Made by a program: the position numbers and the translations under genes | From: a virus | Lineage: Duplodnaviria; Heunggongvirae; Uroviricota; Caudoviricetes | IMG/VR virus record: IMGVR_UViG_2531839450_000009 | Length of the DNA stretch: 30,601 nt | Reading direction: 5' to 3' (one strand) | The notes under the pieces: model-generated | Told to the model about the DNA's origin: nothing | The model's input: only the letters and a program-made list of their open reading frames with translations | Database searches by the model: none | Part shown: piece after piece, positions 2,691-25,128 of the stretch | Position numbering within the stretch: the stretch's first letter is position 1 | How the letters are laid out: every line of letters starts with the position of its first letter

Positions 2691-3551
2691 TTATTCGGGG
2701 AGTTTCAGCTTTGGATTGCGAGAATGGACGATTACAAAACTTTCCCGGCCTTTCTTCTCAATTGAACAGTCGAGATAGCCGATTGTTTTAAGCTGTTCTA
2801 TCGCTTTCTTAATGATACGGTTTTGCTCGCCAACAGCTGACTGTAAAGCCAGGCGCTCACGGATTCGCGCGAACGATAGCGGCAACGGGTTCTGCGGAAG
2901 GCTTTCGATGAAAGTGTAAATGGCTTGTGCAGCTTCTTTCTTCGGAAGGGCACGCAAGGCGTGGTGTTGCAACAGAACGCGATAATCAAGCTGGAACAGC
3001 TCCCAGAGCTTCGAATCGGCCTCCAGCTCTATCAGATCAAGGTCAGCATCAAAACGCCCGACCTTCAGCAGACCAGTCTGATAGCCGCCTTTAGCATCTT
3101 TTCCGCGCTTAAAAGCGATACCCTTGTTACGCAAGCGTCCAAGTGATTCATGAATGGTTAAACGCAGTTTCGCATCCAGACGTTTTGAGGGGAAACCACA
3201 GGCTTTAGCGAACTCCTGAAACGATAACTGGATGGTGTTTGAAGACAAGCCGTATTTGCTGAACGCGTAGATGACACCGATCCACGTTTTGAAATCAGTA
3301 TCCATATCGAGTCGAGGACCGGTGATTTTAATATCATCGTAACCCTCGGCTTTAGCTATCTCCAGCTGGGAAAACGCTTTGGTAGCATCAATCTCTTTAC
3401 TTTCTCCTTTGCTCTTTGATGGCTTCGGCACGAATACCCCCAAGCGCATCAACGCTACAGGCTGCACAGTGTTGTTTGAATTAACTGTTAGTTCTTTTGC
3501 CTTACTTTCAATGTCTGCGTAAAGAATATCGGAGATAAATGATTGATTCAT
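2691..3551 (-). CDS. repA: RepA plasmid replication initiator
   Basis: ORF track, 286 aa, starting MNQSFISDILYADIESKAKELTV. Flanked upstream by five origin iterons and downstream by the incA array, the canonical P1 R-replicon layout. Confidence 0.9.
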   Translation of the reverse strand: MNQSFISDILYADIESKAKELTVNSNNTVQPVALMRLGVFVPKPSKSKGESKEIDATKAFSQLEIAKAEGYDDIKITGPRLDMDTDFKTWIGVIYAFSKYGLSSNTIQLSFQEFAKACGFPSKRLDAKLRLTIHESLGRLRNKGIAFKRGKDAKGGYQTGLLKVGRFDADLDLIELEADSKLWELFQLDYRVLLQHHALRALPKKEAAQAIYTFIESLPQNPLPLSFARIRERLALQSAVGEQNRIIKKAIEQLKTIGYLDCSIEKKGRESFVIVHSRNPKLKLPE

Positions 3552-3559
3552 ATTACTTT

Positions 3560-3830
3560 TTCCGAATTATGTGGATAGTTTTTATAAGCGGTGATAACTA
3601 CCCAGGCTTTCCCGTCAGCACACATCCTATATCCCGCCAGCACACATTAGCAACCCGTCAGCACACATTTTTTTCCCTCCAGCGCACATCATTTTCCCTC
3701 CAGCACACATCGCGAAAGGCTTCTAAGCCAGACGGGGCGCGGCCTACGACGATCAGGGATCTATATGGATCTAATTGGGATCTGTATGGACCTGATTATT
3801 GGATCTATCCAGTGGATAATGTGGATAAGT
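3560..3830. other. oriR plasmid replication origin
   Basis: Contains DnaA-box matches tgtggatag at about 3570 and tandem gtggataa / tgtggataa at 3812-3828, the five incC iterons, and five GATC sites within about 55 bp (about 3751, 3758, 3768, 3779, 3802). Confidence 0.8.
3611..3712. repeat. incC: five direct iterons inside oriR (also the repA promoter region)
   Basis: cccgtcagcacacatcc, cccgccagcacacatta, cccgtcagcacacattt, ccctccagcgcacatca, ccctccagcacacatcg at roughly 22-bp spacing; same core as the incA iterons. Confidence 0.85.
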
Positions 3831-4606: not shown

Positions 4607-4862
4607 TTTTCACTTCCTGGCTGTGAAAATGTTGATCTGCTTTGTTCATCGTCTCAATGGTCTGGTTAAGATCCATTATTGACTTATCACGTTCCTTAAC
4701 AGCCTGATCAAGACTGCCAATTTTCTCGATGGCTTGCTTTAGCTGATGACGTTCCCATGCAAACCCAGCACCAACAAGTGCGCAAATCAGAACAAGAACA
4801 CCAGTAGCAGCAAGTTTCTCCTTCAAAGACAAAGCTGTTTTTAACGTAGAAAAGAATGACAT
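4440..4862 (-). CDS. N-terminal single-TM, coiled-coil periplasmic protein; i-spanin-like architecture
   Basis: ORF track frame 4440..4889. Preferred start is the Met at 4862 (MSFFSTLKTALSLKEKLAATGVLVLICALVGAGFAW) with a GGAGG Shine-Dalgarno 5 nt upstream. TM helix then a charged helical region. Its 3' end overlaps the lipoprotein gene. Confidence 0.55.
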   Translation of the reverse strand: MSFFSTLKTALSLKEKLAATGVLVLICALVGAGFAWERHQLKQAIEKIGSLDQAVKERDKSIMDLNQTIETMNKADQHFHSQEVKNESEQAKYADRQMERKAEVQKQLVAAGNVRQRIPADTQRLLRESISEFNADADKG

Positions 4863-4901: not shown

Positions 4902-5690
4902 TTACTGTGCCGCTTTGTTTAATTCATCAAGAACAGAATCAGGAACCAAAGCAGCAACTGCGCTGGCTGTGCTGGCCTTATTTGCTGATGCTTCCGCAAG
5001 CGCAGTACCGATAGCATGGTTATAAGCAGTTATGGCTACATTGGCGCTTTCATTCGCTCGTTCATACTGCTGTTGTAACGCAGTTGTGGGCGCTGTTGTC
5101 TGGTTGAAAACAACCCCAAACTGTTCAGTTGCTACTTTCAGAGATTCAATTTGCTCTTCTGTTAGTGCTGGTGGGGGAGTGGCAGTGCCGCCGCCTGAAC
5201 CAGAGCCTGACGAGCTTCCTGAGCCAGTGTTAAGGGTCTGGTTAATCTCCCCCATAGCAGCGATTAAACTTGATGTATTAAGCGCGTTTACAGCGTCCTC
5301 AAGCGATTTAGTAATAGTCACATCACCAATGGCAATAGAGATCGGCAGTTCTGATACTTCTCGCTCATTAGCACGGCAGTAAACATCCCAACCAATATCG
5401 AGTTGAAGCAGCATTGACAGATCTGCATAACCAGCCAACAGGTCCGCGTGCTTAGTTGCCAGTTCGACAATGTTCGTTAAGCCGGTTGTGGTTGTTCTGA
5501 TCGTTGAAACATAGCTGGTAATAGTGTCGGGATAGACAATTGTATCCAGAATTAATCCGGTCAATTCTTCTGCAAGCAGTTTTGCTGTGTTAGCACTGTT
5601 TCGTGCCGATGTTATGGCACCAGGTGTTTTCATCCCACCGGCGGCGGCCAATTTTTTATATGCGGATAACTGGTAGTCTTTTTCCAGCAT
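4902..5690 (-). CDS. hypothetical two-domain protein with Gly/Ser-rich linker (263 aa)
   Basis: ORF track frame 4902..5747. Preferred start MLEKDYQ at 5690 with AGGAG Shine-Dalgarno, avoiding overlap with the PAAR-like gene. Central linker GSGSSSGSGSGGG. No domain recognised. Confidence 0.5.
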   Translation of the reverse strand: MLEKDYQLSAYKKLAAAGGMKTPGAITSARNSANTAKLLAEELTGLILDTIVYPDTITSYVSTIRTTTTGLTNIVELATKHADLLAGYADLSMLLQLDIGWDVYCRANEREVSELPISIAIGDVTITKSLEDAVNALNTSSLIAAMGEINQTLNTGSGSSSGSGSGGGTATPPPALTEEQIESLKVATEQFGVVFNQTTAPTTALQQQYERANESANVAITAYNHAIGTALAEASANKASTASAVAALVPDSVLDELNKAAQ

Positions 5691-5698
5691 GATATCTC

Positions 5699-5983
5699 CT
5701 AACTTACCTGAACCAGGCCGTCTCCGGACGCTACGGTAGATCCGCATGAAACAGGGTCACCAACGCATACGATCCCTTTACCATTGACGGTAAACCATGC
5801 CCTGGTTGATATAGCTTGCCCACCGTGCGTACTGTTTCCATCGGTATGCTGTGCATATTGCTTACCATCAACTAACACTTCGACTCCGTTGACTTTAAGT
5901 AGTGGTTCACTCTCTACAGGAGGCCTAGATGGGAATCCTCCGTGCCCCGAACAAATGCTGTCTTTTGTTGCAATACTTGCCAC
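5699..5983 (-). CDS. PAAR-like small Cys/His/Gly-rich protein (possible spike-tip protein)
   Basis: ORF track, 94 aa. Motifs ICSGHGG, HTDGNSTHGG and VCVGDPVSCGS resemble PAAR / T4 gp5.4-like repeats. Assignment from motif resemblance only. Confidence 0.4.
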   Translation of the reverse strand: MASIATKDSICSGHGGFPSRPPVESEPLLKVNGVEVLVDGKQYAQHTDGNSTHGGQAISTRAWFTVNGKGIVCVGDPVSCGSTVASGDGLVQVS

Positions 5984-6064
5984 GTCATCACCAATTATTT
6001 GCTCTGATTTTCGTTATTTTAACTCAGGTTGTTTGTGGTCTACATGGAGTTCAACTATTGCAAA

Positions 6065-6081
6065 ATTGCTCTAATAAATAT
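6065..6081 (+). promoter_or_regulatory. C1 repressor operator-like 17-mer
   Basis: attgctctaataaatat matches 15-16 of 17 positions of the P1 C1 operator consensus ATTGCTCTAATAAATTT as I recall it. A TTGCAA -35-like hexamer lies just upstream. Sits between the divergent minus-strand operon and the RdgC/dmt operon. Confidence 0.55.
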
Positions 6082-6152
6082 TGTTTTTTATGTCGTATTT
6101 TCGGTACCATTCAGCCATCGCCCTTCAATGGGCATTTGTTTGGAGTCGTCAG

Positions 6153-6437
6153 ATGCAGATGGAGCTAATAAGCCGCAAAGAGTTCGATAGCCGTGTAACC
6201 AGCGGTGAACTCGACAACTTGCAGGCTATCAAGGTGAAAGAAGGCTTTTGCCTCATTGGGAATCAGAGCGGAACAAATCGCGTTTTTATGCTTCGCCGTA
6301 CGGATTTGAAGCCATTTGTCTGGAAGAACGAAATTGGTCCCAGCTCATACGCTCAAACGAGGGGGTGCCACAACCTGGCCTTTTTCTACAAAGACGAGCT
6401 TTCTGTGGTTGATATTCAAGGGTTACAACATGTTTAA
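6153..6437 (+). CDS. hypothetical small protein upstream of, and translationally coupled to, the rdgC homolog
   Basis: ORF track frame 6081..6437. Preferred start ATG 6153 ([11 protein letters not shown]) with GGAG 7 nt upstream. Its stop overlaps the hrdC start in the sequence ATGTTTAA. Confidence 0.45.
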
Positions 6438-7335
6438 GCACTGGAAAAACATTACTATTTATAAACTTTCTCGTGAGGCGGATCTGACCGACTTAGAAGA
6501 TAAAAAGAAAATGATCCTTTTCACGCCATGCGGTAGTCAGGATATGGCCAAGTTCGGTTTTGTATCTCCATTTGGTGATAATTCCGAAGTTATCGCTATG
6601 CATGGAAATGGTTTTATCCTTGTTGAAGCAAAGCGCGAAACAAAAATTCTTCCCCCGCCGGTTATCCAGCGAGCTATTCAAGAAAAAATTGAAAAACTTG
6701 AGCAAGAACAAGCGCGTAAACTGAAGAAAACAGAGAAGGACTCCCTGAAAGACGAAGTTCTGCATTCTCTTCTGCCACGGGCTTTTTCAAAGTTTTCTGT
6801 TATCCAGGCGATCTACGACGGTTCAACTAAACGTATCTATATCAATGCCAGCGCGCGGCAGGCAGAGGATATGCTCGCGCTTATGCGTAAGTCTCTGGGT
6901 TCTCTTCCTGTTGTTCCCCTGAGTGTTGAAAATCCCATTGAATTAACGCTGACCGACTGGGTACGTGATGGTAGTGCTCCACAAGGATTTCAAATGGGGG
7001 ATGCGGCAGAACTTAAGGCAGTGCTTGAGGATGGCGGTATTGCCCGAGTGAAAAAGCAGGATTTGGGAAGCGATGAAATTTCCACACACCTGGAAGCTGG
7101 CAAGCTCGTCACTAAGTTGGCACTCGACTGGCAGAACCGCATTAAATTTACACTGGACCATAACTTCAGCCTTACCAGCGTCAAATTTGCGGATGAATTG
7201 CTTGAGCAGAACTCTGATATTGATAATGAAGATGTTGCGCAGCGACTGGACGCAGATTTCTTCCTGTTGACCAGTGAAATTTCGTGCCTGGTTGATGCTC
7301 TGGTAAATGCCCTTGGTGGAGAGGCTAAGCAGTGA
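6430..7335 (+). CDS. hrdC: RdgC-family recombination-associated protein
   Basis: ORF track frame, start at internal Met 6430 ([16 protein letters not shown]). Long stretches near-identical to E. coli RdgC as recalled ([54 protein letters not shown]); about 301 aa like RdgC. Confidence 0.82.
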
Positions 7336-9596
7336 AAGAGCTGTGCTATGGATCTGTTTGCAGTGGAATTGAAGCCGCGAGTATTGCCTGGGAACCGTTG
7401 GGTATGCGTCCGGCGTGGTTTGCTGAAATCGAGCCTTTTCCATCTGCCGTTCTTGCGCACCGCTGGCCCCATGTCGCCAACCTTGGCGACATGACAAAAC
7501 TTGCCCAAAAAGTCCTGGCTGGGGAAATCGAATCCCCTGATGTGCTCGTCGGGGGAACACCTTGTCAGGCATTCAGTATCGCAGGATTAGGTGGTGGGCT
7601 TGATGATGAGCGTGGCGCGCTAACTTTAAAGTATGTGGAGCTTGCAAATGCAATTGACGACAAACGGGCTGAGTCATTTCTCAAACCAGCCGTTATCGTC
7701 TGGGAAAATGTCCCAGGAGTCTTGTCATCGGCAGATAACGCCTTCGGATGTTTCCTTGCCGGATTGGCTGGAGAAGATGTGCCATTTGAACCAGGTGATC
7801 GACCTGAATCAGGAAAAAGCAACGCGTTCTGGCGGTGGGATGGCAAAACCGGTTGCCATGTTCCAAAGTGGCCGCAGTGTGGTTGTATTTATGGACCGCA
7901 GCGAAAGGTGGCCTGGAGAATCCTTGATGCCCAATACTTCGGAGTGGCACAACGACGCCGACGCGTGTTTGTTGTCGCAAGTGCTCGAACAGACCTCGAT
8001 CCCGCAACGGTACTTTTTGAGTTCGAAGGCGTGCGCCGGAATATTGCGCCGAGCCGAAAAAAGAAGGAAATCGCTTCCGCCATTACTGCAAATGGCGCTG
8101 CAATCAGTGGCGAAAGCCTAAATCCATGCCTACACGCTGGCATGTCCCCCGGTATGAAATCGACGAAAGCCGTAAACGGTTTCAGGATGGCGGCATTTGG
8201 GGAATATATTGACGATGAAACCGCATCGACAGTAAAGGCAAGAGACTTTAAAGATGCCACTGACCTTGCCGTTTTTAGCAGCACTGGAGCAGGTTTTTGG
8301 TCAGAAGGGCATGGTACATTGCGGGCGCGTGAGCAAGAAAGCCATGAGCATCTTGTTACATTGGCTTTTCCTGAGCGTATGAGTGGTACACAACATGCAG
8401 CAACTAAGAATACTTCACCATCTCTAATGGCTCAAAATCCAACTGCTGTTTGCTATGAAGTAAGAAACGAAGAAGTAGCTGTCCGCCGTCTTACCCCTGT
8501 CGAATGTGAGAGACTTCAAGGTTTTCCTGATGGGCATACGTTGATCCCTACGGAAAAGCGTAAAAAAGTTAATTCAGATGAACTGGCATATCTGCACAAT
8601 CACTATCCAGATTTAAGCGAAGAAGAGGCCGCGATGCTTGCAGCTGACGGACCGCGTTACAAAGCGATCGGCAATAGTATGGCAATACCAGTAATGCGCT
8701 GGATTGGCGAGCGGATTACCAGGGCTGCATGTCGGCAGAATGAAGGGCGTGAAACAAAAGAGCGAAAAGTTAAACCAGCGGCAGAATTCGAACGGTCCAT
8801 ATTCAAATGGGCTGGTGGAAAATTTGGTGTTCTGGAACAAATCTTTCGCTATTTGCCAGAAGGGAAGCGCCTGATCGAACCTTTTGTCGGTGGCGGAGCT
8901 GTCTTCACGAATGCCGGATACCAGGAAAATCTGCTAAATGATGTGAATGCTGACCTGATTAACTTTTACAAGACTCTGCAACGCGAGGCGCATTCACTTA
9001 TCACACTGGCGCATCGGTTTTTCCAGGACTACAACACACAGGAAGGATACCTGGCAGTACGGAATGCGTTTAACAAACAAGTCTATGATGATTTACATCG
9101 CGCAGCGGCGTTTTTGTTCCTGAACCGACATTGTTTTAACGGATTGACGCGTTACAACCAGGCCGGTGAGTTCAATGTCGGTTATGGGAAGTATAAAACT
9201 CCGTATTTCCCATTACAGGAGATGGAAGCCTTCCTCGGTGCGGAAGGGTGTTCTGAGTTTGTATGTGGTGATTTTGCAGCGGTGATTGAAGCTGCCGGAG
9301 AAGGAGATGTCATCTTTTGCGATCCGCCGTATGAACCGCTTCCAAATACAGAGGGATTCACGAACTATTCCGGTCATGACTTTAAGTTTGAAGAGCAAAA
9401 ACGCCTGGTGTCTCTGTTGACGGATGCTCATCGTCGAGGTGCAAAGGTTCTCATTACTAACAGTGGCGCGCCAAATATCAGAGAGCTTTATCATGACAGT
9501 GGCTTCAGAGTGGAACCTCTTTTTGCCAGACGTTCTGTGTCTTGTAAGGGGGACACTCGAGGTGTAGCTCATGACGTTTTAGGTATATTGCTCTAA
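7332..9596 (+). CDS. dmt: bifunctional DNA methyltransferase: N-terminal C5-cytosine MTase domain fused to C-terminal Dam-like N6-adenine MTase domain
   Basis: ORF track, 754 aa, GTG start overlapping the hrdC stop. N-terminal half has the catalytic [11 protein letters not shown] and ENV (WENVPGV) motifs of C5 MTases. C-terminal half has the DPPY motif (IFCDPPYEP) and Dam-like FKWAGGK/SAM-binding region. Confidence 0.88.
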
Positions 9597-9603
9597 TAAA
9601 TTT
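9587..9603 (+). promoter_or_regulatory. C1 repressor operator-like 17-mer overlapping the dmt stop codon
   Basis: attgctctaataaattt is a 17/17 match to the recalled C1 operator consensus. Embedded in the 16-bp palindrome ctaataaatttattag, followed by taatat (-10-like). Confidence 0.6.
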
Positions 9604-9619
9604 ATTAGTGTAATATCGC

Positions 9620-9776
9620 CTCAATGAATCGTGATTTATAGAGCGATTTAGCTGTTAGCCGCGACAGGCGCGGCGGTAAGCATGGCTGGGCCTAGTCCTC
9701 CCAGACAAACCACCGAGTTGCCAGGTTGACCATGCGCCTAAGTGGCAACTCCGAAGTGCGTTACGAGCTTCCAGTT
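9620..9776 (+). ncRNA. candidate structured small RNA between the dmt-end operator/promoter and an intrinsic terminator
   Basis: No ORF. Several hairpins (gccgcg..cgcggc; gttgcca..tggcaac enclosing about 19 nt) and ends at a strong terminator. Ends not mapped. Confidence 0.3.
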
Positions 9777-9804
9777 TGCCCATCTTCGGGTGGGCGTTTT
9801 TTTT
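9777..9804 (+). terminator. Rho-independent terminator
   Basis: GC-rich hairpin gcccatc-ttcg-ggtgggc followed by a run of 8 T. Confidence 0.65.
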
Positions 9805-9986
9805 CAGGGTTTTCGTCATGGTTAGCGACTTTGCGGCGGTTTAGAAACTGACCATTAAAGTAAATGCAAACGATGATCTGATGATGGTAGCGGCCTAAGA
9901 AGCCAGACGCCACGGGGTATGAGTCGTCCCCCGTCAAAAAAATCGACCGCAGAGTGTCCCCGTCTGTGTATTAGGGAACGGGGAGG

Positions 9987-10067
9987 CACAACAGGTAAGG
10001 GCGCTGGTGTGATTAACCAGATGAACGAGAAGGGGCCATCTGTTGGTCAGCGTCCTTTCCTGTTGCG
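9987..10067 (+). ncRNA. hairpin element E1 (candidate structured RNA, family of four)
   Basis: cacaacaggtaaggg ... cctttcctgttg form a long closing stem around an internal hairpin ctggtgtgattaaccag. Confidence 0.3.
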
Positions 10068-10269
10068 TTTTCTTTTCAGCGTAACAGCGGTGCTTAACAG
10101 CACTTTGGGTACAGTTCCACGAATTTACGGGTATATCCCGTCATGCTGAAGGCGCTAATCACGCTGGAAGCCAGGGTTGTGCATCCCCTGTTACCGAATT
10201 GCAGCCAGGGCGCGGTGCGCCGAAAAGCATACGGAGGTGGAAGCCCTCGCCGGAGACGTACCCGGCAGG

Positions 10270-10311
10270 TGATGGTGTAGCTCAGCGGTTCGAGTCCGTT
10301 AATCGGCACCA
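10270..10311 (+). pseudogene. tRNA remnant: D-loop-like and T-arm plus 3' acceptor-ACCA, anticodon arm absent (tRNA-Thr-like 3' end)
   Basis: gtgtagctcag fused directly to ggttcgagtccgtt-aatcggc-a-cca. T-stem agcgg/ccgtt pairs with loop TTCGAGT. The 3' end atcggcacca resembles E. coli thrW as I recall. No complementary 5' acceptor strand and no anticodon stem-loop. Confidence 0.4.
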
Positions 10312-10312
10312 G

Positions 10313-10399
10313 CACAACAGGTAAGGGTATTTTGCGACGTCGGAGATCGCCGAGCTTGGCAGAGGGTTCGAATCCCTACGAAGTACCCTTACCGTTGTG
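10313..10399 (+). ncRNA. hairpin element E2 (candidate structured RNA with T-arm-like internal hairpin)
   Basis: 16-bp closing stem cacaacaggtaagggta / tacccttaccgttgtg (one bulge) enclosing gggttcgaatccc. Not a cloverleaf. Confidence 0.3.
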
Positions 10400-10544
10400 A
10401 TGAAGTGCAGCTCTTTGAAGCAACCAGAAGATAAGCATCTGGCTTCACAACATAAACCGCAGGAACGACCAATAAACGGTAGTCCGTATGGAGAACACCC
10501 CGTTGAGGAAGAGGCCTGGCCGGAACCGTAACCGGCACTACAAC

Positions 10545-10626
10545 GTTGAGAACACTGGCGTAACGGGGTCATATCCCAATCTACGAATAAATGTTGCGTT
10601 GCAGCGTGACAACCAGTGTTCTCAAC
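10545..10626 (+). ncRNA. hairpin element E3
   Basis: Perfect 14-bp stem gttgagaacactgg / ccagtgttctcaac enclosing gtaacggggtcatatcccaatctac; tail attgtggtgaatgc shared with E4. Confidence 0.3.
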
Positions 10627-10815
10627 ATTGTGGTGAATGCACAGGCTGATGTGCCGCAACTACAGTAGTGCGCGCTTTGCGGGGCTTGCTACAACCCTGT
10701 GTCGGAGTTCAGCACCGACCATCACAGTTTGATTCTCTGGCATGAGCATAACGCTGAAATAAGTCCAGTCTGGTGCGGCCCGATCACCCGCCGTTAGCTC
10801 CACGAAACGGAGCAC

Positions 10816-10892
10816 GTAACAGGTAAGAGCATTCTCCTGTAACGGGTTCATATCCCAATCTACAGGTCCACCAGGAATGCTCTTTCCGTTGC
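10816..10892 (+). ncRNA. hairpin element E4
   Basis: Imperfect long stem gtaacaggtaagagcattctcctg / caggaatgctctttccgttgc enclosing taacgggttcatatcccaatctac; tail ttgcggtgaatgc. Confidence 0.3.
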
Positions 10893-11042
10893 GGTGAATG
10901 CGGCTAAGCGCACGCGGAACAGTTAAAACAATCCTCCTTAATGGTTAAACATTCCGGCGTTAATTGTTAACTGGTTAACGTCACCGGGAGGCACTCGGCA
11001 CCGCAATCTAATAAATATGTCACTTTTATTGAGGGATAACCA

Positions 11043-11477
11043 ATGTTCGGTAAATTGTTCGGCAAGAAAGTCGCTTCTGCAAAAGTAGAGCTGAAAAAAG
11101 TTGAGAATCGCGATCTGATGGAGGCCATCATCGGTGGCTGTTTGTTGGTGTCTGCCGCTGATGGTGAAATCGAAAAAGAAGAAACAGCGAAACTTGATCA
11201 GCTTGTCCGCTCTAATCCGCGTCTTAGTCATTTTGGTAACGAAATTACTGCAACAATTACCCGCTTTACCGAGCAACTGGAAGCTGGCTTCCGTGTTGGT
11301 CGCATGAATATCCTTCGCGAAATTGAAGATATCAAAAACGATCCAAAAGAAGCGGAAGAAGTATTCGTTAACATGCTGACAATTGCAGAAGCGGACGGTG
11401 AAATCGAGCCAGCAGAACACAAAGTACTGGAAGAAGTAGGCCGTCGTTTAGGTCTTCGTGTGGAAGATTATCTGTAA
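11043..11477 (+). CDS. tciA: TerB-domain protein (tellurite-resistance TerB family)
   Basis: ORF track, 144 aa. Pattern IIGGCLLVSAADGEIEKEE ... MLTIAEADGEIEPAEHKVLEEVGRRLGL, two D-G-E-I repeats typical of TerB. Position upstream of tRNA-Ile and ban matches my memory of P1 tciA. Confidence 0.7.
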   Translation: MFGKLFGKKVASAKVELKKVENRDLMEAIIGGCLLVSAADGEIEKEETAKLDQLVRSNPRLSHFGNEITATITRFTEQLEAGFRVGRMNILREIEDIKNDPKEAEEVFVNMLTIAEADGEIEPAEHKVLEEVGRRLGLRVEDYL

Positions 11478-11641
11478 TGGCAAGCAAGGCACGTATCGCA
11501 ATCGCCATTGGTTTTCTCTTGCTGTCCGTGCTGGTGGATTTCACCAGCACAATCCTGTCAGTTTTATCGGACGGGGCGTTGGTGGCAGTAGCTGTAACAT
11601 TGGTATGGCCGATATTAAAAACAGCTTCTAAGGATCAGTGA
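11477..11641 (+). CDS. small membrane protein (54 aa), translationally coupled to tciA
   Basis: ATG overlaps the tciA stop (TAATG). Hand translation MASKARIAIAIGFLLLSVLVDFTSTILSVLSDGALVAVAVTLVWPILKTASKDQ. Below the ORF-track size cutoff. Position corresponds to P1 tciB as I recall. Confidence 0.5.
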   Translation: MASKARIAIAIGFLLLSVLVDFTSTILSVLSDGALVAVAVTLVWPILKTASKDQ

Positions 11642-11748
11642 TGGGCTTCTGGGATTTTGCTGACAAGCATCCAATTGTTCTCGTTGTCATTGCTGGCATA
11701 GTTGTAGGCGGTATTGCTGGCGTCATAGAAGCACTCAGGAAACAGTAA
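11641..11748 (+). CDS. small membrane peptide (35 aa), translationally coupled
   Basis: ATG overlaps the previous stop (TGATG). MGFWDFADKHPIVLVVIAGIVVGGIAGVIEALRKQ. Position corresponds to P1 tciC as I recall. Confidence 0.45.
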   Translation: MGFWDFADKHPIVLVVIAGIVVGGIAGVIEALRKQ

Positions 11749-11751
11749 TCC

Positions 11752-11827
11752 GGCCCTTTAGCTCAGTGGTTAGAGCTGGCGACTCATAATCGCACGGTCA
11801 CCGGTTCAAGTCCGGTAGGGGCCACCA
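11752..11827 (+). tRNA. trnI: tRNA-Ile (anticodon CAU, lysidine type, AUA-decoding); tRNA-Met cannot be excluded from sequence alone
   Basis: Clean cloverleaf: acceptor GGCCCTT/AGGGGCC, D-arm GCTC-AGTGGTTA-GAGC, anticodon loop CTCATAA, T-arm ACCGG-TTCAAGT-CCGGT, encoded CCA. Near-identical to E. coli ileX as I recall. Confidence 0.85.
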
Positions 11828-12113
11828 TATTTGGTTGTAACACGGCGTCTGGCACATGCGTCGTTAGCGGTCTGGTGACGTTAAAAGGGGGGAACCTTGC
11901 CCCTAGCTCAGGCAACGAACCAGGTAGCCGGAATGTGCAAGCCACCGTTTGTTGTTTCTCGGGTAAAGGGATTCACCATCCTGGCGATTCGGTGTGACAG
12001 CCGGGAAGAGTCCGGCGCATTAATCCTGATTTTCTGGTGATGACTCATATCGTTAGGAGTGATTTGAGTATGCCGATTATATCTGACATTCAGCACGCCT
12101 GGGTGGAGTGCTA

Positions 12114-13478
12114 ATGTCTGCATCCCCTCTTGAATCCATGCCAAATTCCCTTAGTGCAGAACAAGCTGTACTTGGTGGCTTAATGCTTGATAACTGCCGC
12201 TGGGATGAAGTTGCAGATCGTATAGTTGCTGATGATTTTTATACCAGTGCTCATCGTGAAATTTTCAGTGAGATGGAGAGGTTATTAAGTCATGGCAAAC
12301 CGATTGATTTGATAACACTTGCTGAAGCACTTGAACAGAACGGTAAATTAGAACGCGCCGGTGGTTTTGCGTACCTTGCGGAGATGTCAAAGAACACGCC
12401 CAGCGCGGCAAATATTTGTGCTTATGCGGATATCGTTCGTGAACGCGCGGTTGTTCGTGAAATGATTTCCGTCGCAAATGAAATAGCCGAAGCTGGATAT
12501 GCGCAGGATGGCAGGGGCAGCAATGAATTGCTGGATATGGCCGAGCGCCGCGTTTTTGAAATAGCTGAAAAACGACAAAAGAGCGGTAGTGGTCCAAAAG
12601 ATATCGCCAGCATTCTCGATGCAACGGTATCTCGCATAGAAGAGTTGTTTCAGCGACCACATGATGGTGTAACGGGGCTTGATACGGGATTTACCGATCT
12701 CAATAAGAAGACGGCAGGGCTTCAGCCGTCCGATCTCATCATTGTCGCCGCCCGCCCATCTATGGGGAAGACCACGTTTGCGATGAATCTCGTCGAAAAT
12801 GCCGCAGTCCGTAACTATAAGCCCGTATTGGTTTTTAGCCTTGAGATGCCGAGCCACCAGCTGATGATGCGCTCACTGGCTTCTCTTGCACGCGTTGATC
12901 AGACTCGTATTCGAACAGGGCAACTTAACGACGAGGATTGGGCGCGGGTTTCTGGCGCAATGGGGATTCTGTTGGACAAGCAAAATATTTTTATTGATGA
13001 CTCAAGCGCCCTGACACCTACAGAGCTTCGTTCCCGCGCTCGTCGTGTTTATAAAGAAAATGGTGGTTTGAGCATGATTATGATCGACTACCTGCAACTT
13101 ATGCGCGTCCCCGAGCTGCAAGATAACCGAACGCTGGAAATTGCCGAGATTTCTCGCTCACTGAAGGCTTTGGCGAAGGAATTACAAGTACCGGTGGTGG
13201 CATTGTCACAACTTAATCGTTCACTTGAACAGCGTGCGGACAAACGACCGGTAAATTCAGATTTACGTGAATCAGGAGCAATTGAGCAGGACGCAGACCT
13301 GATCATGTTTCTGTATCGCGACGAAGTTTATCACCCGGATAGCGAAATGAAGGGCATTGCCGAGGTGATTATCGGTAAGCAACGAAATGGCCCAATTGGC
13401 ACGGTGAGATTGGCTTTTAACGGCCAATACTCACGGTTTGATAACTATGCTGGTGCTGACTGGCAAGAGGATTATTGA
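12114..13478 (+). CDS. ban: DnaB-family replicative helicase (Ban)
   Basis: ORF track frame 12108..13478; preferred ATG 12114 with GGAG upstream. Walker A PSMGKTTFAMNL. Long stretches identical to E. coli DnaB as recalled (SIEAEQ-like N-terminus, GLQPSDLIIVAARPSMGKTT, LRESGAIEQDADLIMF). Confidence 0.9.
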   Translation: MSASPLESMPNSLSAEQAVLGGLMLDNCRWDEVADRIVADDFYTSAHREIFSEMERLLSHGKPIDLITLAEALEQNGKLERAGGFAYLAEMSKNTPSAANICAYADIVRERAVVREMISVANEIAEAGYAQDGRGSNELLDMAERRVFEIAEKRQKSGSGPKDIASILDATVSRIEELFQRPHDGVTGLDTGFTDLNKKTAGLQPSDLIIVAARPSMGKTTFAMNLVENAAVRNYKPVLVFSLEMPSHQLMMRSLASLARVDQTRIRTGQLNDEDWARVSGAMGILLDKQNIFIDDSSALTPTELRSRARRVYKENGGLSMIMIDYLQLMRVPELQDNRTLEIAEISRSLKALAKELQVPVVALSQLNRSLEQRADKRPVNSDLRESGAIEQDADLIMFLYRDEVYHPDSEMKGIAEVIIGKQRNGPIGTVRLAFNGQYSRFDNYAGADWQEDY

Positions 13479-14476
13479 TGCAATGGAATGAGGAAAAGCC
13501 GATGAACATCCTGATCATTGGGCGAAAATTTGAAGCTATCAGTGATGTGAAAACATATACGGAAATGTGGGCTTACAACCTGGCCTGCGCCTTTAGTGAG
13601 GCAGGGGTAACATTGCAATACCATCGTCCATATTCCCCCGGCGTCGAAAGCCCGGAGGATTATGTTGAAGCTGTGTTGACCGCTGCGACCTCGTGTTCTG
13701 CGAAAGCCATTTTAGCGCCAGGATTGCGGTATTTTACTACGGTGCCCAGGGAAATAGGCGTGCAACTGCGTCGTCGATTCACTGGATGGGTAGCCCAGGT
13801 ATACGACGGTTCTATGCTGGATTCGGCACCAGTCGATATTACTTTTACTGTCCGCGATGATACCTGGCGGTACCTGGATAATCCAGGCAGGTTAGAGCGT
13901 CATAATCGCTTTAACAAACATGTTGGATGGGCAGCGAATCAGGATCTGTTCCATCTGGAAACCAAAACAGACGATGTTCTGCGTATTTTTGTAGACCACG
14001 CTGCATTTGATGTTAGTGGGTTTGATCACTCCTTAAGTATCCTTATGAACCTTCAGCGTCTGACCGTTCCGTATGAGGCCAGAACGTTGACCGATGACGG
14101 ATTGATTACCATTGATCCGGGGAATATATCGGTAACCCCATACAGACGGACGCCGGTACCAGCAACCGAATTTGCAGCTGAATTGCGTAAGAGTGACGTG
14201 TTTATCGTTACGCATCCCGAAAGCCTTGGATTAACTGTACTTGAGGCGGCAATGTGCGGGGCGTTGGTATTAACGCCTCCCGATTGCCTTCCGCCAGATC
14301 GCCTGGCTTTGGTGAACCATATGGTTATCAAGTCGCGGATTGATTGGGATGAGGTTATTGCTCGCGTTGATCGCGTGAAAAATGCTGAAAAGGTCCAGTG
14401 TCACACCTGGTCGGCAATTGCGGAAAAGATGCTTGAGACGTTTATCACGCAGAAACCGTCGCGCGGTAACGGATAA
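13478..14476 (+). CDS. GT4-like glycosyltransferase (GT-B fold); occupies the position of P1 dbn
   Basis: ORF track frame; start overlaps the ban stop (or Met at 13502 with AGGA Shine-Dalgarno). C-terminal motif THPESLGLTVLEAAMCGALVLTP resembles the E-x7-E signature of GT4 retaining glycosyltransferases. Confidence 0.6.
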   Translation: MQWNEEKPMNILIIGRKFEAISDVKTYTEMWAYNLACAFSEAGVTLQYHRPYSPGVESPEDYVEAVLTAATSCSAKAILAPGLRYFTTVPREIGVQLRRRFTGWVAQVYDGSMLDSAPVDITFTVRDDTWRYLDNPGRLERHNRFNKHVGWAANQDLFHLETKTDDVLRIFVDHAAFDVSGFDHSLSILMNLQRLTVPYEARTLTDDGLITIDPGNISVTPYRRTPVPATEFAAELRKSDVFIVTHPESLGLTVLEAAMCGALVLTPPDCLPPDRLALVNHMVIKSRIDWDEVIARVDRVKNAEKVQCHTWSAIAEKMLETFITQKPSRGNG

Positions 14477-14497
14477 AAAATTGAACCCGTCATAACA

Positions 14498-14522
14498 GAA
14501 AAGCCCTAACGCCGGGCTTTTC
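14498..14522. terminator. bidirectional intrinsic terminator between convergent operons
   Basis: gaaaagccc-taacgcc-gggcttttc: 9-bp stem flanked by A-run and T-run. Confidence 0.6.
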
Positions 14523-17669
<3,147 letters not shown>

Positions 17670-19274: not shown

Positions 19275-19420
19275 AGTCAGCCTGCCAGAAATAGATGATG
19301 GTGATTCTACCGCTAGTCATTTGTTGAATATTTAACTCAATAAAAGAAAATTATTAGTGCAATTTTGATTGTGAAATGTATCATTCTGCCCTTAAGTAGG
19401 TTCTTCACGAGGAAACAAAA

Positions 19421-22970: not shown

Positions 22971-22987
22971 ATTGCTCTAATAATTCC
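22971..22987 (+). promoter_or_regulatory. C1 operator-like 17-mer, left copy of an inverted pair
   Basis: attgctctaataattcc begins right after the stop of the upstream gene. Confidence 0.5.
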
Positions 22988-22996
22988 ATATTTTTA

Positions 22997-23026
22997 AAAC
23001 GTGATGTACACTCATCACGTTTTTTA
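22997..23026. terminator. bidirectional intrinsic terminator
   Basis: aaaa-acgtgatg-tacact-catcacgt-tttttt: 8-bp stem between an A-run and a T-run. Confidence 0.6.
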
Positions 23027-23036
23027 TTAGAGCAAT
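23020..23036 (-). promoter_or_regulatory. C1 operator-like 17-mer, right copy (inverted orientation)
   Basis: Reverse complement reads attgctctaataaaaaa (first 13 positions match the consensus). Confidence 0.45.
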
Positions 23037-24605: not shown

Positions 24606-25112
24606 TTGAGTATTTTCAATAAACACGCACACCAGGAACGTCCGTACATCGTCATAGTAGATATTGATGGGACGATATCAGAGGCAACGGAAGACAGGCT
24701 GCATTTACTTCCACCACCTGGCAAAGGTGCATTAACAGAGCACTGGAACGAGTTTAACCTTGCCTGTGACACTGATGCTCCCATCACTCCAGTTATTGAT
24801 ATGGTGCGCCAGTTGTCCGGCATTTACACCCTCTGGTTTGTAACCGGGCGCTGTGAGATAGCCAGGGATAAAACACGAGCCTGGTTGCGTAAGCACGTAA
24901 CAAATGGGACTGAGCCTTTGCTATCTATGCGTCCTGCCACCGATGACAGAAATGACGGTCCAGCAAAGATTGATCTCCTGAAGAAAATTGGTCTAAGTAA
25001 AATTGCGTTCGCGCTGGAAGATAAGATTGACGTGGCGCGTGTTTTCAGGAGTCACGGCGTACTTACGTTAATGGTCAGGGAGTATGAAAACGCGCTTCTC
25101 CATCAACAATAA
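24606..25112 (+). CDS. HAD-superfamily phosphatase (phage Pnkp 3'-phosphatase-domain-like)
   Basis: ORF track; TTG start with GAGGAG Shine-Dalgarno. HAD motif I IVIVDIDGTI (DxDGT), later TGR and a D-rich motif. Confidence 0.6.
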   Translation: MSIFNKHAHQERPYIVIVDIDGTISEATEDRLHLLPPPGKGALTEHWNEFNLACDTDAPITPVIDMVRQLSGIYTLWFVTGRCEIARDKTRAWLRKHVTNGTEPLLSMRPATDDRNDGPAKIDLLKKIGLSKIAFALEDKIDVARVFRSHGVLTLMVREYENALLHQQ

Positions 25113-25128
25113 TTGCTCTAATAAATCT
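25112..25128 (+). promoter_or_regulatory. C1 operator-like 17-mer overlapping the stop of the HAD gene
   Basis: attgctctaataaatct matches 15-16 of 17 positions. Confidence 0.55.

Follow-up and report, generated by a model that had tools for sequence, protein, structure and literature searches.

A conserved pseudoknotted RNA ahead of the terminator in the ban leader of a P1-type phage, a candidate for the control of read-through

The DNA considered here, positions 9604 to 9804 of a 30,601-nucleotide (nt) Caudoviricetes record (IMG/VR IMGVR_UViG_2531839450_000009; at its full length referred to as the window), forms, in a P1-type phage, the 5' leader of the ban operon, which is repressed by C1. 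It contains an RNA domain of ~125 nt, also found in lambdoid phages and prophages, which runs up to an intrinsic terminator and whose copies have preserved a complex fold by compensatory changes. We propose, with a probability that we put at roughly 0.4, that this conserved RNA acts in cis on the read-through of the adjacent terminator, such that the stretch would be a leader and attenuator. A first-pass annotation, made from the letters of the window, had already suggested a repressor-controlled small RNA or leader, or else a transcriptional attenuator. The anatomy behind that suggestion, a C1-controlled promoter followed by a structured non-coding leader and a strong terminator before the tRNA, tci and ban genes, agrees with the published annotation of P1. 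What had been overlooked is that a 'dicF-like region' is annotated here in P1, that the hairpins form a single ~125-nt domain common to lambdoid prophages, and that the terminator is a mosaic junction.

The case for a folded RNA is a comparative one. Folded by itself, the leader (9618-9806) is not unusually stable (z = -1.44), so that the earlier description of the stretch as hairpin-rich called for comparative support, which the comparison across sequences gives. Our structure model was obtained by aligning 17 diverse copies of the element and folding the alignment, and a pseudoknot between G(Y)AUGG, located 5' of hairpin H3, and CCAU(R)C, located in the loop of hairpin H4, was added by eye. 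In this alignment 94.1% of the cells are paired, as against 34-54% when the partners are slid, ten pairs vary on both sides, and the observed pairing values were reached in none of 500 shuffles. A covariance model, R1, was then used to gather 73 copies, in which 96.8% of the cells are paired (34-55% in the slid controls) and nine pairs show changes on both sides. The pseudoknot helix is 99.3% paired in this larger set; its single variable position occurs as U-A (67), U-G (3) or C-G (2), and the rare loop variant, U to C, turns the U-G into a C-G pair. In the window, R1 matches 9643-9779 with a score of 102 bits (E = 4e-33). Supported by these compensatory changes, the domain is best modelled as a multi-helix junction with a loop pseudoknot (Table 1). 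The many G-U alternatives fit the plus strand only, and the RNA is therefore read in the direction of Pban in P1 and of PL in lambdoid phages. While the sequence of H3 varies freely, the loops and junctions are near-invariant, including GGCGCGGCGGUAAG.AUGGC and CAGGUUGACCAU.CGC, as expected for a shape that is recognised by a conserved host machine.

Could the conservation instead reflect a protein? The variable arm measures 26-52 nt across copies, with lengths in each of the three frame classes, which excludes a conserved coding gene. The earlier note had called about 170 nt of the stretch free of open reading frames (ORFs); taken mechanically, ORFs of 54 and 58 amino acids on the minus strand and one of 41 amino acids, starting from TTG, on the plus strand overlap it, and hypothetical proteins are annotated over the element in some phage records. 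One minus-strand frame (..MVNLTTRCPQ..), open across the 3' block in 72 of the 73 copies, was rejected on the same count of arm lengths and because half of the sequences carry stops across the whole element. Among catalogued RNAs, a search of the window against Rfam 15 gave no match for the domain, and an identity as a tRNA- or transfer-messenger RNA (tmRNA)-like molecule was discarded after ARAGORN and the Rfam tRNA model had proved negative at 9650-9776, the likeness to a cloverleaf being topological only. Our literature searches on DicF found no mention of an upstream structured RNA.

The element is widespread. A distant search with 9604-9830 as query returned matches in 4264 of all 5426 complete Escherichia coli genomes, most of them chromosomal and covering query positions 56-150 (window 9659-9753) at 76-79% identity. 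In the two contexts that we opened, K-12 J53 and an O157:H7 strain, the match belongs to a Qin-type prophage, where it is flanked by ydfC (or its counterpart by position) and dicB, and in both the matched block (3001-3097, locus positions) lies 25 nt upstream of DicF (3122-3173). We further found the element in 43 lambdoid phage records, including mEp460, cdtI, 2H10, Ayreon, Stx2c phages, Salmonella F1055 and one whose deposit names it an Actinobacillus phage. Matches were likewise obtained in 504 records of plasmids, which look P1-type by their size and best matches; in 502 of them the match extends over 80% or more of the query, with an identity of 79-100%. IMG/VR adds over 100 contigs. The flanks of the element cannot be aligned between P1 and its lambdoid relatives.

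The neighbourhood of DicF raises the question of whether the P1 stretch is itself a DicF RNA, as its label would have it. We reject this identity: the DicF model of Rfam, RF00039, gave no match in 9500-10500 at E values of up to 10 and none at the gathering score in the whole window, while the positive controls in Qin and in the O157 prophage scored 76.7 and 75 bits. With the model negative in the window, and the matched block located upstream of DicF in Qin, the part shared between P1 and Qin is, by sequence, the RNA that precedes DicF and not DicF itself, which makes the label 'dicF-like region' misleading. Over 9659-9753, the homology to the Qin element amounts to 77-79% identity. The slot of DicF is occupied in P1 by an unrelated linker and an unrelated terminator. 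In their layout, the two regions nonetheless agree, as both the ydfABC-dicF-dicB region and the P1 leader consist of a folded domain, a short linker and an intrinsic terminator, followed by genes that need read-through; and the P1 unit is, like DicF, an intra-operon unit ending at a Rho-independent terminator just past the conserved leader domain. In Qin, termination at the hairpin yields the 53-nt DicF, while read-through to dicB yields a 72-nt form processed by RNase III (PMC5069750, PMC9438474).

The lambdoid copies place the element in a defined setting. In every annotated case it shares the strand of the repressor gene and lies 3' of that gene, and therefore in the early-left operon. In the phages 2H10 and cdtI, the element and its terminator are located just downstream of the repressor gene; in 2H10, a PL-like promoter that agrees with the consensus in 11 of 12 positions lies past the cI terminator, and the element follows ~280 nt later, in front of the entire left operon up to and including xis. 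Twelve classes can be distinguished among the sequences that come after the element, namely the P1 type and eleven lambdoid types (the DicF, cdtI and F1055 types among them). In all 12 a hairpin and a T-run come after the element, the T-run 41-91 nt past it, with only a weak best-scoring hairpin in class L010, and in sequence the P1 terminator bears no relation to its lambdoid counterparts. In Qin, in functional lambdoid phages and in P1, the genes that matter thus lie beyond a terminator that is directly preceded by the conserved RNA.

In lambda, such genes are reached with the help of nutL and the N protein. Among the ORFs near the left promoter, PHROGs and Pfam detected no N-type antiterminator, which, given the diversity of N proteins, is weak evidence, and the first gene past the terminator in cdtI and 2H10 encodes an acidic rather than an arginine-rich product. 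The only N-like feature near the left promoter is a 26-codon arginine-rich ORF in 2H10 (4715-4795; MRQARFKQNLVVTRRMAHASLAVWGR), a few bases past the inferred PL start, which is probably a product of chance. In the literature, early antitermination in N-less lambdoid phages is treated as open, with 'put-like' as a guess (PMC12315714). Directly 5' of the closing helix, lambdoid copies (L005 2470-2484, L006, L041, L002 2975-2990) carry the boxA-like strings GTGCTCTC(A/T) or GTGCGCTTCC; these may be a Nus-factor site or chance occurrences, and we regard them as only a lead.

In P1, the conserved RNA stands under the control of the C1 repressor. Over 9400-10500 the window is 99% identical to phage P1 (NC_005856), and it also matches other P1-type phages and phage-plasmids at this level, which identifies it as a P1-type phage; window positions are obtained by subtracting 59080 from P1 coordinates, a conversion valid up to the T-tract of the terminator, where the window has two additional T. 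At this locus, NC_005856 annotates the operator Obanab (formerly Op72ab; 68667-68694), with the note 'controls expression of ban', the promoter P1ban, a predicted P2ban and the 'dicF-like region' (a misc_feature at 68791-68892). In phage P7 the same operator pair is annotated and said to control tRNAs and downstream genes. As operator, promoters and 'dicF-like region' were thus all present in the 2004 annotation, our description of them is, for P1, largely a rediscovery.

The perfect C1-operator match that had been claimed to overlap the dmt stop is confirmed with no mismatch, the dmt ORF ending at 9596, and the -10-like taatat reported next to it proved to be the annotated -10 of P1ban. The operator consensus, ATTGCTCTAATAAATTT, overlaps a sigma-70 promoter where the records of P1 and P7 place it, and with up to three mismatches this 17-bp consensus occurs seven times in the window, as against 0.13 times expected by chance. 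From the spacing to the -10, transcription would start at ~9622-9624 for P1ban; for P2ban the inferred start is ~9609. A generic sigma-70 scan called no promoter at Pban because its -35 (TTGCTC) is weak, and the promoter status therefore rests on the P1 annotation. The five additional operator-like sites in the window, with one to three mismatches, are found at 6065-6081, 19347-19363, 22971-22987, 23020-23036 and 25112-25128; they are presumably other C1-controlled operators of the phage.

The canonical intrinsic terminator proposed earlier at about 9777-9804 is borne out. Its stem (9778-9784/9789-9795; hairpin of -12.8 kcal/mol, five G-C among eight pairs) is followed by a tract of eight T at 9797-9804, and it is by far the best plus-strand terminator within 5500-15500. 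It lies ~160 nt 3' of the -10 and is the sole strong plus-strand intrinsic terminator between Pban and ban. Past it lie a tmRNA-like, hairpin and tRNA array, tciABC, a tRNA and ban. No promoter-like site was found on the plus strand from the terminator up to ban (12108), and the expression of ban hence requires read-through. The T-tract is polymorphic in length, with eight T in the window and six in reference P1, P7 and D6, a difference that could change the efficiency of termination.

Table 1. Features of the ban leader and of the block that follows it, in window coordinates.
Feature	Position	Strand	Basis or remark
C1 operator half-site Op72a (Obana), perfect consensus ATTGCTCTAATAAATTT	9587..9603	+	overlaps dmt stop codon and P1ban -35 (9588-9593)
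C1 operator half-site Op72b (Obanb), 2 mismatches	9598..9614	-	inverted, 6 bp overlap with Op72a, making a divalent operator; pair annotated in P1 and P7
Predicted P2ban	-10 9597-9602, -35 9571-9576	+	P1 annotation; overlaps P1ban
P1ban -10 TAATAT	9611..9616	+	transferred P1 annotation
5' leader hairpin, specific to P1/P7, about -7 kcal/mol	9625..9650	+	fold; outside the conserved family
Conserved structured RNA domain, ~125 nt	9650..9776	+	covariance model, covariation, fold, Qin-type homology
Closing helix of domain	9650-54/9772-76	+	fold
Hairpin H1 of domain	9659-63/9669-73	+	fold
GGU/ACC helix of domain, encloses H3	9675-77/9712-14	+	fold
Variable hairpin H3 of domain	9686-90/9700-04	+	fold
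Long hairpin H4 of domain	9715-23/9743-51 plus 9724-26/9736-38	+	fold
Pseudoknot of domain, GCAUGG with CCAUGC in H4 loop	9680-85 with 9730-35	+	fold
P1-only hairpin (specific to P1/P7)	9753-57/9767-71	+	fold
Equivalent of 'dicF-like region' misc_feature	9711..9814	+	NC_005856 68791-68892, transferred via alignment
Intrinsic terminator, 7-8 bp G+C-rich stem, UUCG loop, eight T	9777..9804	+	also 5' boundary of the block common with phage D6
tmRNA-like message module	9818-9898: hairpin 9818-25/9848-55, tag 9866-9898	+	sequence, sub-threshold Rfam

How might the conserved RNA serve the operon? Once C1 has left Op72ab, RNA polymerase would start at ~9622 (P1ban) or ~9609 (P2ban), transcribe the non-coding domain, which begins ~28 nt past the inferred start site, and would meet the terminator almost at once, as the closing helix ends one base 5' of the terminator stem. 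From the C1-controlled promoter, the leader and the strong terminator, a terminated product of ~180-195 nt is expected upon induction, made by those polymerases that stop, while those that pass would go on into the array, tciABC, the tRNA and ban. In the proposed mechanism, the nascent domain would act in cis on the elongating polymerase or on host cofactors of the Nus type, and would thereby set the share of transcription that passes the adjacent terminator, a job that is done by putL in HK022 and by nutL together with N in lambda. The module would then be an attenuator or antiterminator in need of no phage protein. We favour such an action in cis because of the position of the element, its invariable coupling to a terminator that itself varies, the compact fold with invariant unpaired bases, the lack of a recognisable N, and the read-through in Qin. 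In bac-1 lysogens, which are operator-constitutive, ban is expressed from the prophage, and read-through would thus need no lytic phage protein.

Several observations weigh against this interpretation. In phage D6 the terminator and the array behind it are present and the element is not, which means that the element is not universally needed for read-through of this terminator. Leaky termination alone could suffice for ban. The family is shallow: its members all come from enterobacterial phages and mostly exceed 75% identity, so that the conservation of the loops may partly reflect recent spread. Homology to the put sites of HK022 was considered and rejected: local alignments against putL and putR gave p = 0.06-0.36 by shuffling, a procedure in which putL against putR gave 0/1000, and R1 found no match at the HK022 put sites. 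Lastly, no second copy of the element was found in unfiltered model searches of the right-operon flanks of cdtI, 2H10, mEp460, F1055 and Qin, and of the 30.6 kb window.

The put sites nevertheless offer a close precedent. Like put, the element lies in the nascent transcript between a repressor-controlled early promoter and the terminators, in phages without a recognised N (weak evidence, as noted), and like put it is compact, with crossing, pseudoknot-like pairings and conserved unpaired bases (for put: PMC9378689). It differs in size, with ~125 nt and four or five helices as opposed to ~70 nt and two stems, and in number, with one copy per genome as opposed to two, one in the left and one in the right operon. 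Rfam contains no put family for testing; the strings GCGCGGCGG and ACCAUGCG, which the element has in common with putL, occur there in permuted order and are not significant. Put suppresses termination and pausing in cis without phage proteins, an activity blocked by mutations in the zinc-binding domain of beta-prime (rpoC). In the proposed mechanism, the element would be a functional analogue of put, and not a homologue. With nutL of lambda it shares the place at the head of the early-left operon and, in the lambdoid copies, the weak boxA-like GTGCTCTC or GTGCGCTTCC ahead of it, but it has no boxB hairpin and no N-like protein was found to go with it; the likeness to boxA is weak and poorer still in P1. 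The PR'-6S RNA-tR' unit of lambda and StxS resemble the P1 leader in that a strong promoter-proximal terminator gives a short RNA unless it is read through (PMC7547250), and the block past the P1 terminator is homologous to the sequence after tR' in some lambdoid prophages; the P1 leader, in contrast, has no Q protein or qut site, and its promoter is C1-repressed and not constitutive.

The likeness to 6S RNA and to DicF brings up a rival reading, in our view less likely but still live, in which the leader makes a trans-acting small RNA, either the ~180-195-nt terminated transcript or a processed 3' piece of ~50 nt (about 9751-9804), that acts on host or phage targets in the manner of DicF, StxS or 6S. 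The promoter, the structured RNA, and the hairpin with its long U tail, typical of Hfq-binding small RNAs, would suit this role, as would the conservation of the 3' piece in P7. In Qin the slot past the element holds a genuine small RNA, DicF, and the DicF-like hairpins that accompany the lambdoid copies form a family whose loops vary, which hints at a diversification of seeds. Against these points stand the silence of the DicF model at the P1 locus, a P1 linker that is mostly taken up by the hairpin at 9753-9771 and leaves little single-stranded seed, and the compact pseudoknotted junction, which is unusual for an antisense regulator. Complementarity to ftsZ does not exceed that of shuffled sequences either: with RNAduplex against ftsZ -80..+60, the P1 3' piece reaches -28.7 kcal/mol compared with a shuffle mean of -34.4, in a test of such low power that DicF itself falls at the 8th percentile, and the H4 loop pairs with the ftsZ start region no better than shuffles do, again in a crude test in which DicF is not significant.

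A further reading, to which we assign a rather low probability, sees the domain as a cassette for processing or stability, which would guide cleavage by RNase E, RNase III or RNase P to free a downstream small RNA or the tRNA array, or would protect the upstream message. The module adjoins variable, small-RNA-like units, and its topology is that of a cloverleaf with an acceptor-like closing helix; the precursor of the P1 C4 RNA is a substrate of RNase P. In the case of DicF, the 5' end is made by RNase E and one 3' end by RNase III, from a polycistronic transcript (PMC5069750, PMC9438474), and upstream stem-loops are reported to direct the precise RNase E processing of MicL (Updegrove 2019, as summarised in PMC9438474). 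A pseudoknotted junction of ~125 nt with near-invariant loops, however, far exceeds the known needs of an RNase E guide, and it offers RNase III no duplex of at least 20 bp; it is not recognised by detectors of tRNA and tmRNA or by the tRNA model of Rfam, nor is a CCA-like 3' context conserved.

It is improbable, too, that the domain is functionless in P1, a mosaic remnant from a lambdoid phage in front of a leaky terminator that serves the transcripts from dmt and Pban. The leader is visibly mosaic, with an element from lambdoid early-left leaders and a post-terminator block from lambdoid late leaders downstream of Q, and D6 keeps terminator and array without the element. Yet the element has been retained, with compensatory changes, in P1, P7 and the 504 P1-type plasmid records, and the fact that the domain can be aligned between P1 and lambdoid phages while the flanks cannot argues for selection on the domain itself. 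Least probable is a riboswitch, with the domain as metabolite or ion aptamer and the terminator as expression platform: a conserved pseudoknotted junction directly upstream of a terminator, in P1 with a single base between closing helix and stem, would fit, but no known class matched in Rfam 15, the distance between element and terminator varies, and a conserved terminator/antiterminator switch was rejected, as by inspection no alternative antiterminator pairing is conserved across the unrelated P1, DicF-type, cdtI-type and F1055-type terminators.

Returning to an action in cis on read-through, its boldest form, which we consider doubtful, would make 9650-9776 the founding member of a second class of protein-independent cis antiterminator RNAs, unrelated in sequence to HK022 put, that let E. 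coli RNA polymerase pass a terminator. If true, this would explain the expression of the early-left operon in lambdoid phages without a recognisable N (2H10, cdtI, mEp460 and Qin- or Rac-type prophages), as well as how dicB is reached past the DicF terminator and ban, in P1, from a promoter that lies 2.5 kb away on its 5' side; it would likewise account for the gating of toxic dicB and kil, and of P1 ban. What is new is a tightly conserved, pseudoknotted and uncatalogued RNA, matched in about four-fifths of the complete genomes of E. coli and on hundreds of plasmids of the P1 type, and with it a testable candidate for early antitermination in lambdoid phages that lack a recognisable N. Even as the body of a small RNA or as a processing handle, the element would be relevant to work on the biogenesis of DicF.

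Judged by its relatives, the ban leader of P1 is mosaic, with two modules that meet at the terminator: one comes from lambdoid early-left leaders, the other from lambdoid late leaders, and in their lambdoid settings both lie behind regulated terminators. For the block at 9809-9918, E. coli chromosomes offer 152 matching places with 80-84% identity. The two of these that we examined lie in lambdoid prophages, just past a lambda-type PR'/6S/tR', with the gene for the antiterminator Q before them and the holin gene after. Phage D6 marks the same boundary, as it aligns with P1 only from the terminator hairpin onward; in its locus (L295 1180-1520) the hairpin and everything downstream are common with P1, while the operator and the conserved RNA are not. 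Before the hairpin, D6 carries ~730 nt of other non-coding sequence, including CCCCGCTGCAAC, which is reminiscent of the 3' end of the lambdoid element.

The first feature past the junction, conserved in P7 and D6, resembles the message part of a tmRNA. Its tag at 9866-9898 (UAAAU GCA AAC GAU GAU ... GCC UAA) comes after UAAAGUAAAU and reads GCA AAC GAT GAT CTG ATG ATG GTA GCG GCC TAA, which would encode ANDDLMMVAA*, with ANDDLMLMAA* and ANDDVVLMAA* as its prophage counterparts; between a TAG at 9842 and the resume-like GCA codon there is no in-frame ATG, GTG or TTG start. Sub-threshold Rfam matches to the permuted and the alpha tmRNA were obtained in the P1-type window (E = 0.0036 and 0.028), and to tmRNA at L298, one of the pair of prophage loci (E = 0.04-0.05), while ARAGORN detected no complete tmRNA in the window or in either prophage locus.

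Further features of the surroundings may be noted. In F1055, an RdgC-type 'exonuclease recombination-associated' gene (2833-3750) comes right after element and terminator, and in the P1-type window a gene of the same PHROG type (hrdC; 6316-7335) lies just upstream of dmt and the element. Compared with P1, the window lacks 113 bp at 10270-10312, where the 5' part of tRNA-Asn is fused to the 3' part of tRNA-Thr at the short direct repeat TCAGCGGTT (10282-10290); neither of these tRNAs was detected in the window, and only a tRNA with a CAU anticodon remains (11752-11827). Long hairpins with shared feet (CACAACAGGTAAG...CTT(A/T)CCGTTGTG) are found repeatedly, both in the P1 leader, at 9987-10067 and 10313-10399 of the window, and in leaders of late operons in lambdoid prophages, at 2922-2989 and about 3335-3425 of one such locus (L297). 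The second of these hairpins in P1 encloses a tRNA-like minihelix (10325-10388), with an acceptor-like GGGUAUUU/GAAGUACCC and a GGGUUCGAAUCCC T-arm, which gives a weak Rfam match of the mascRNA type.

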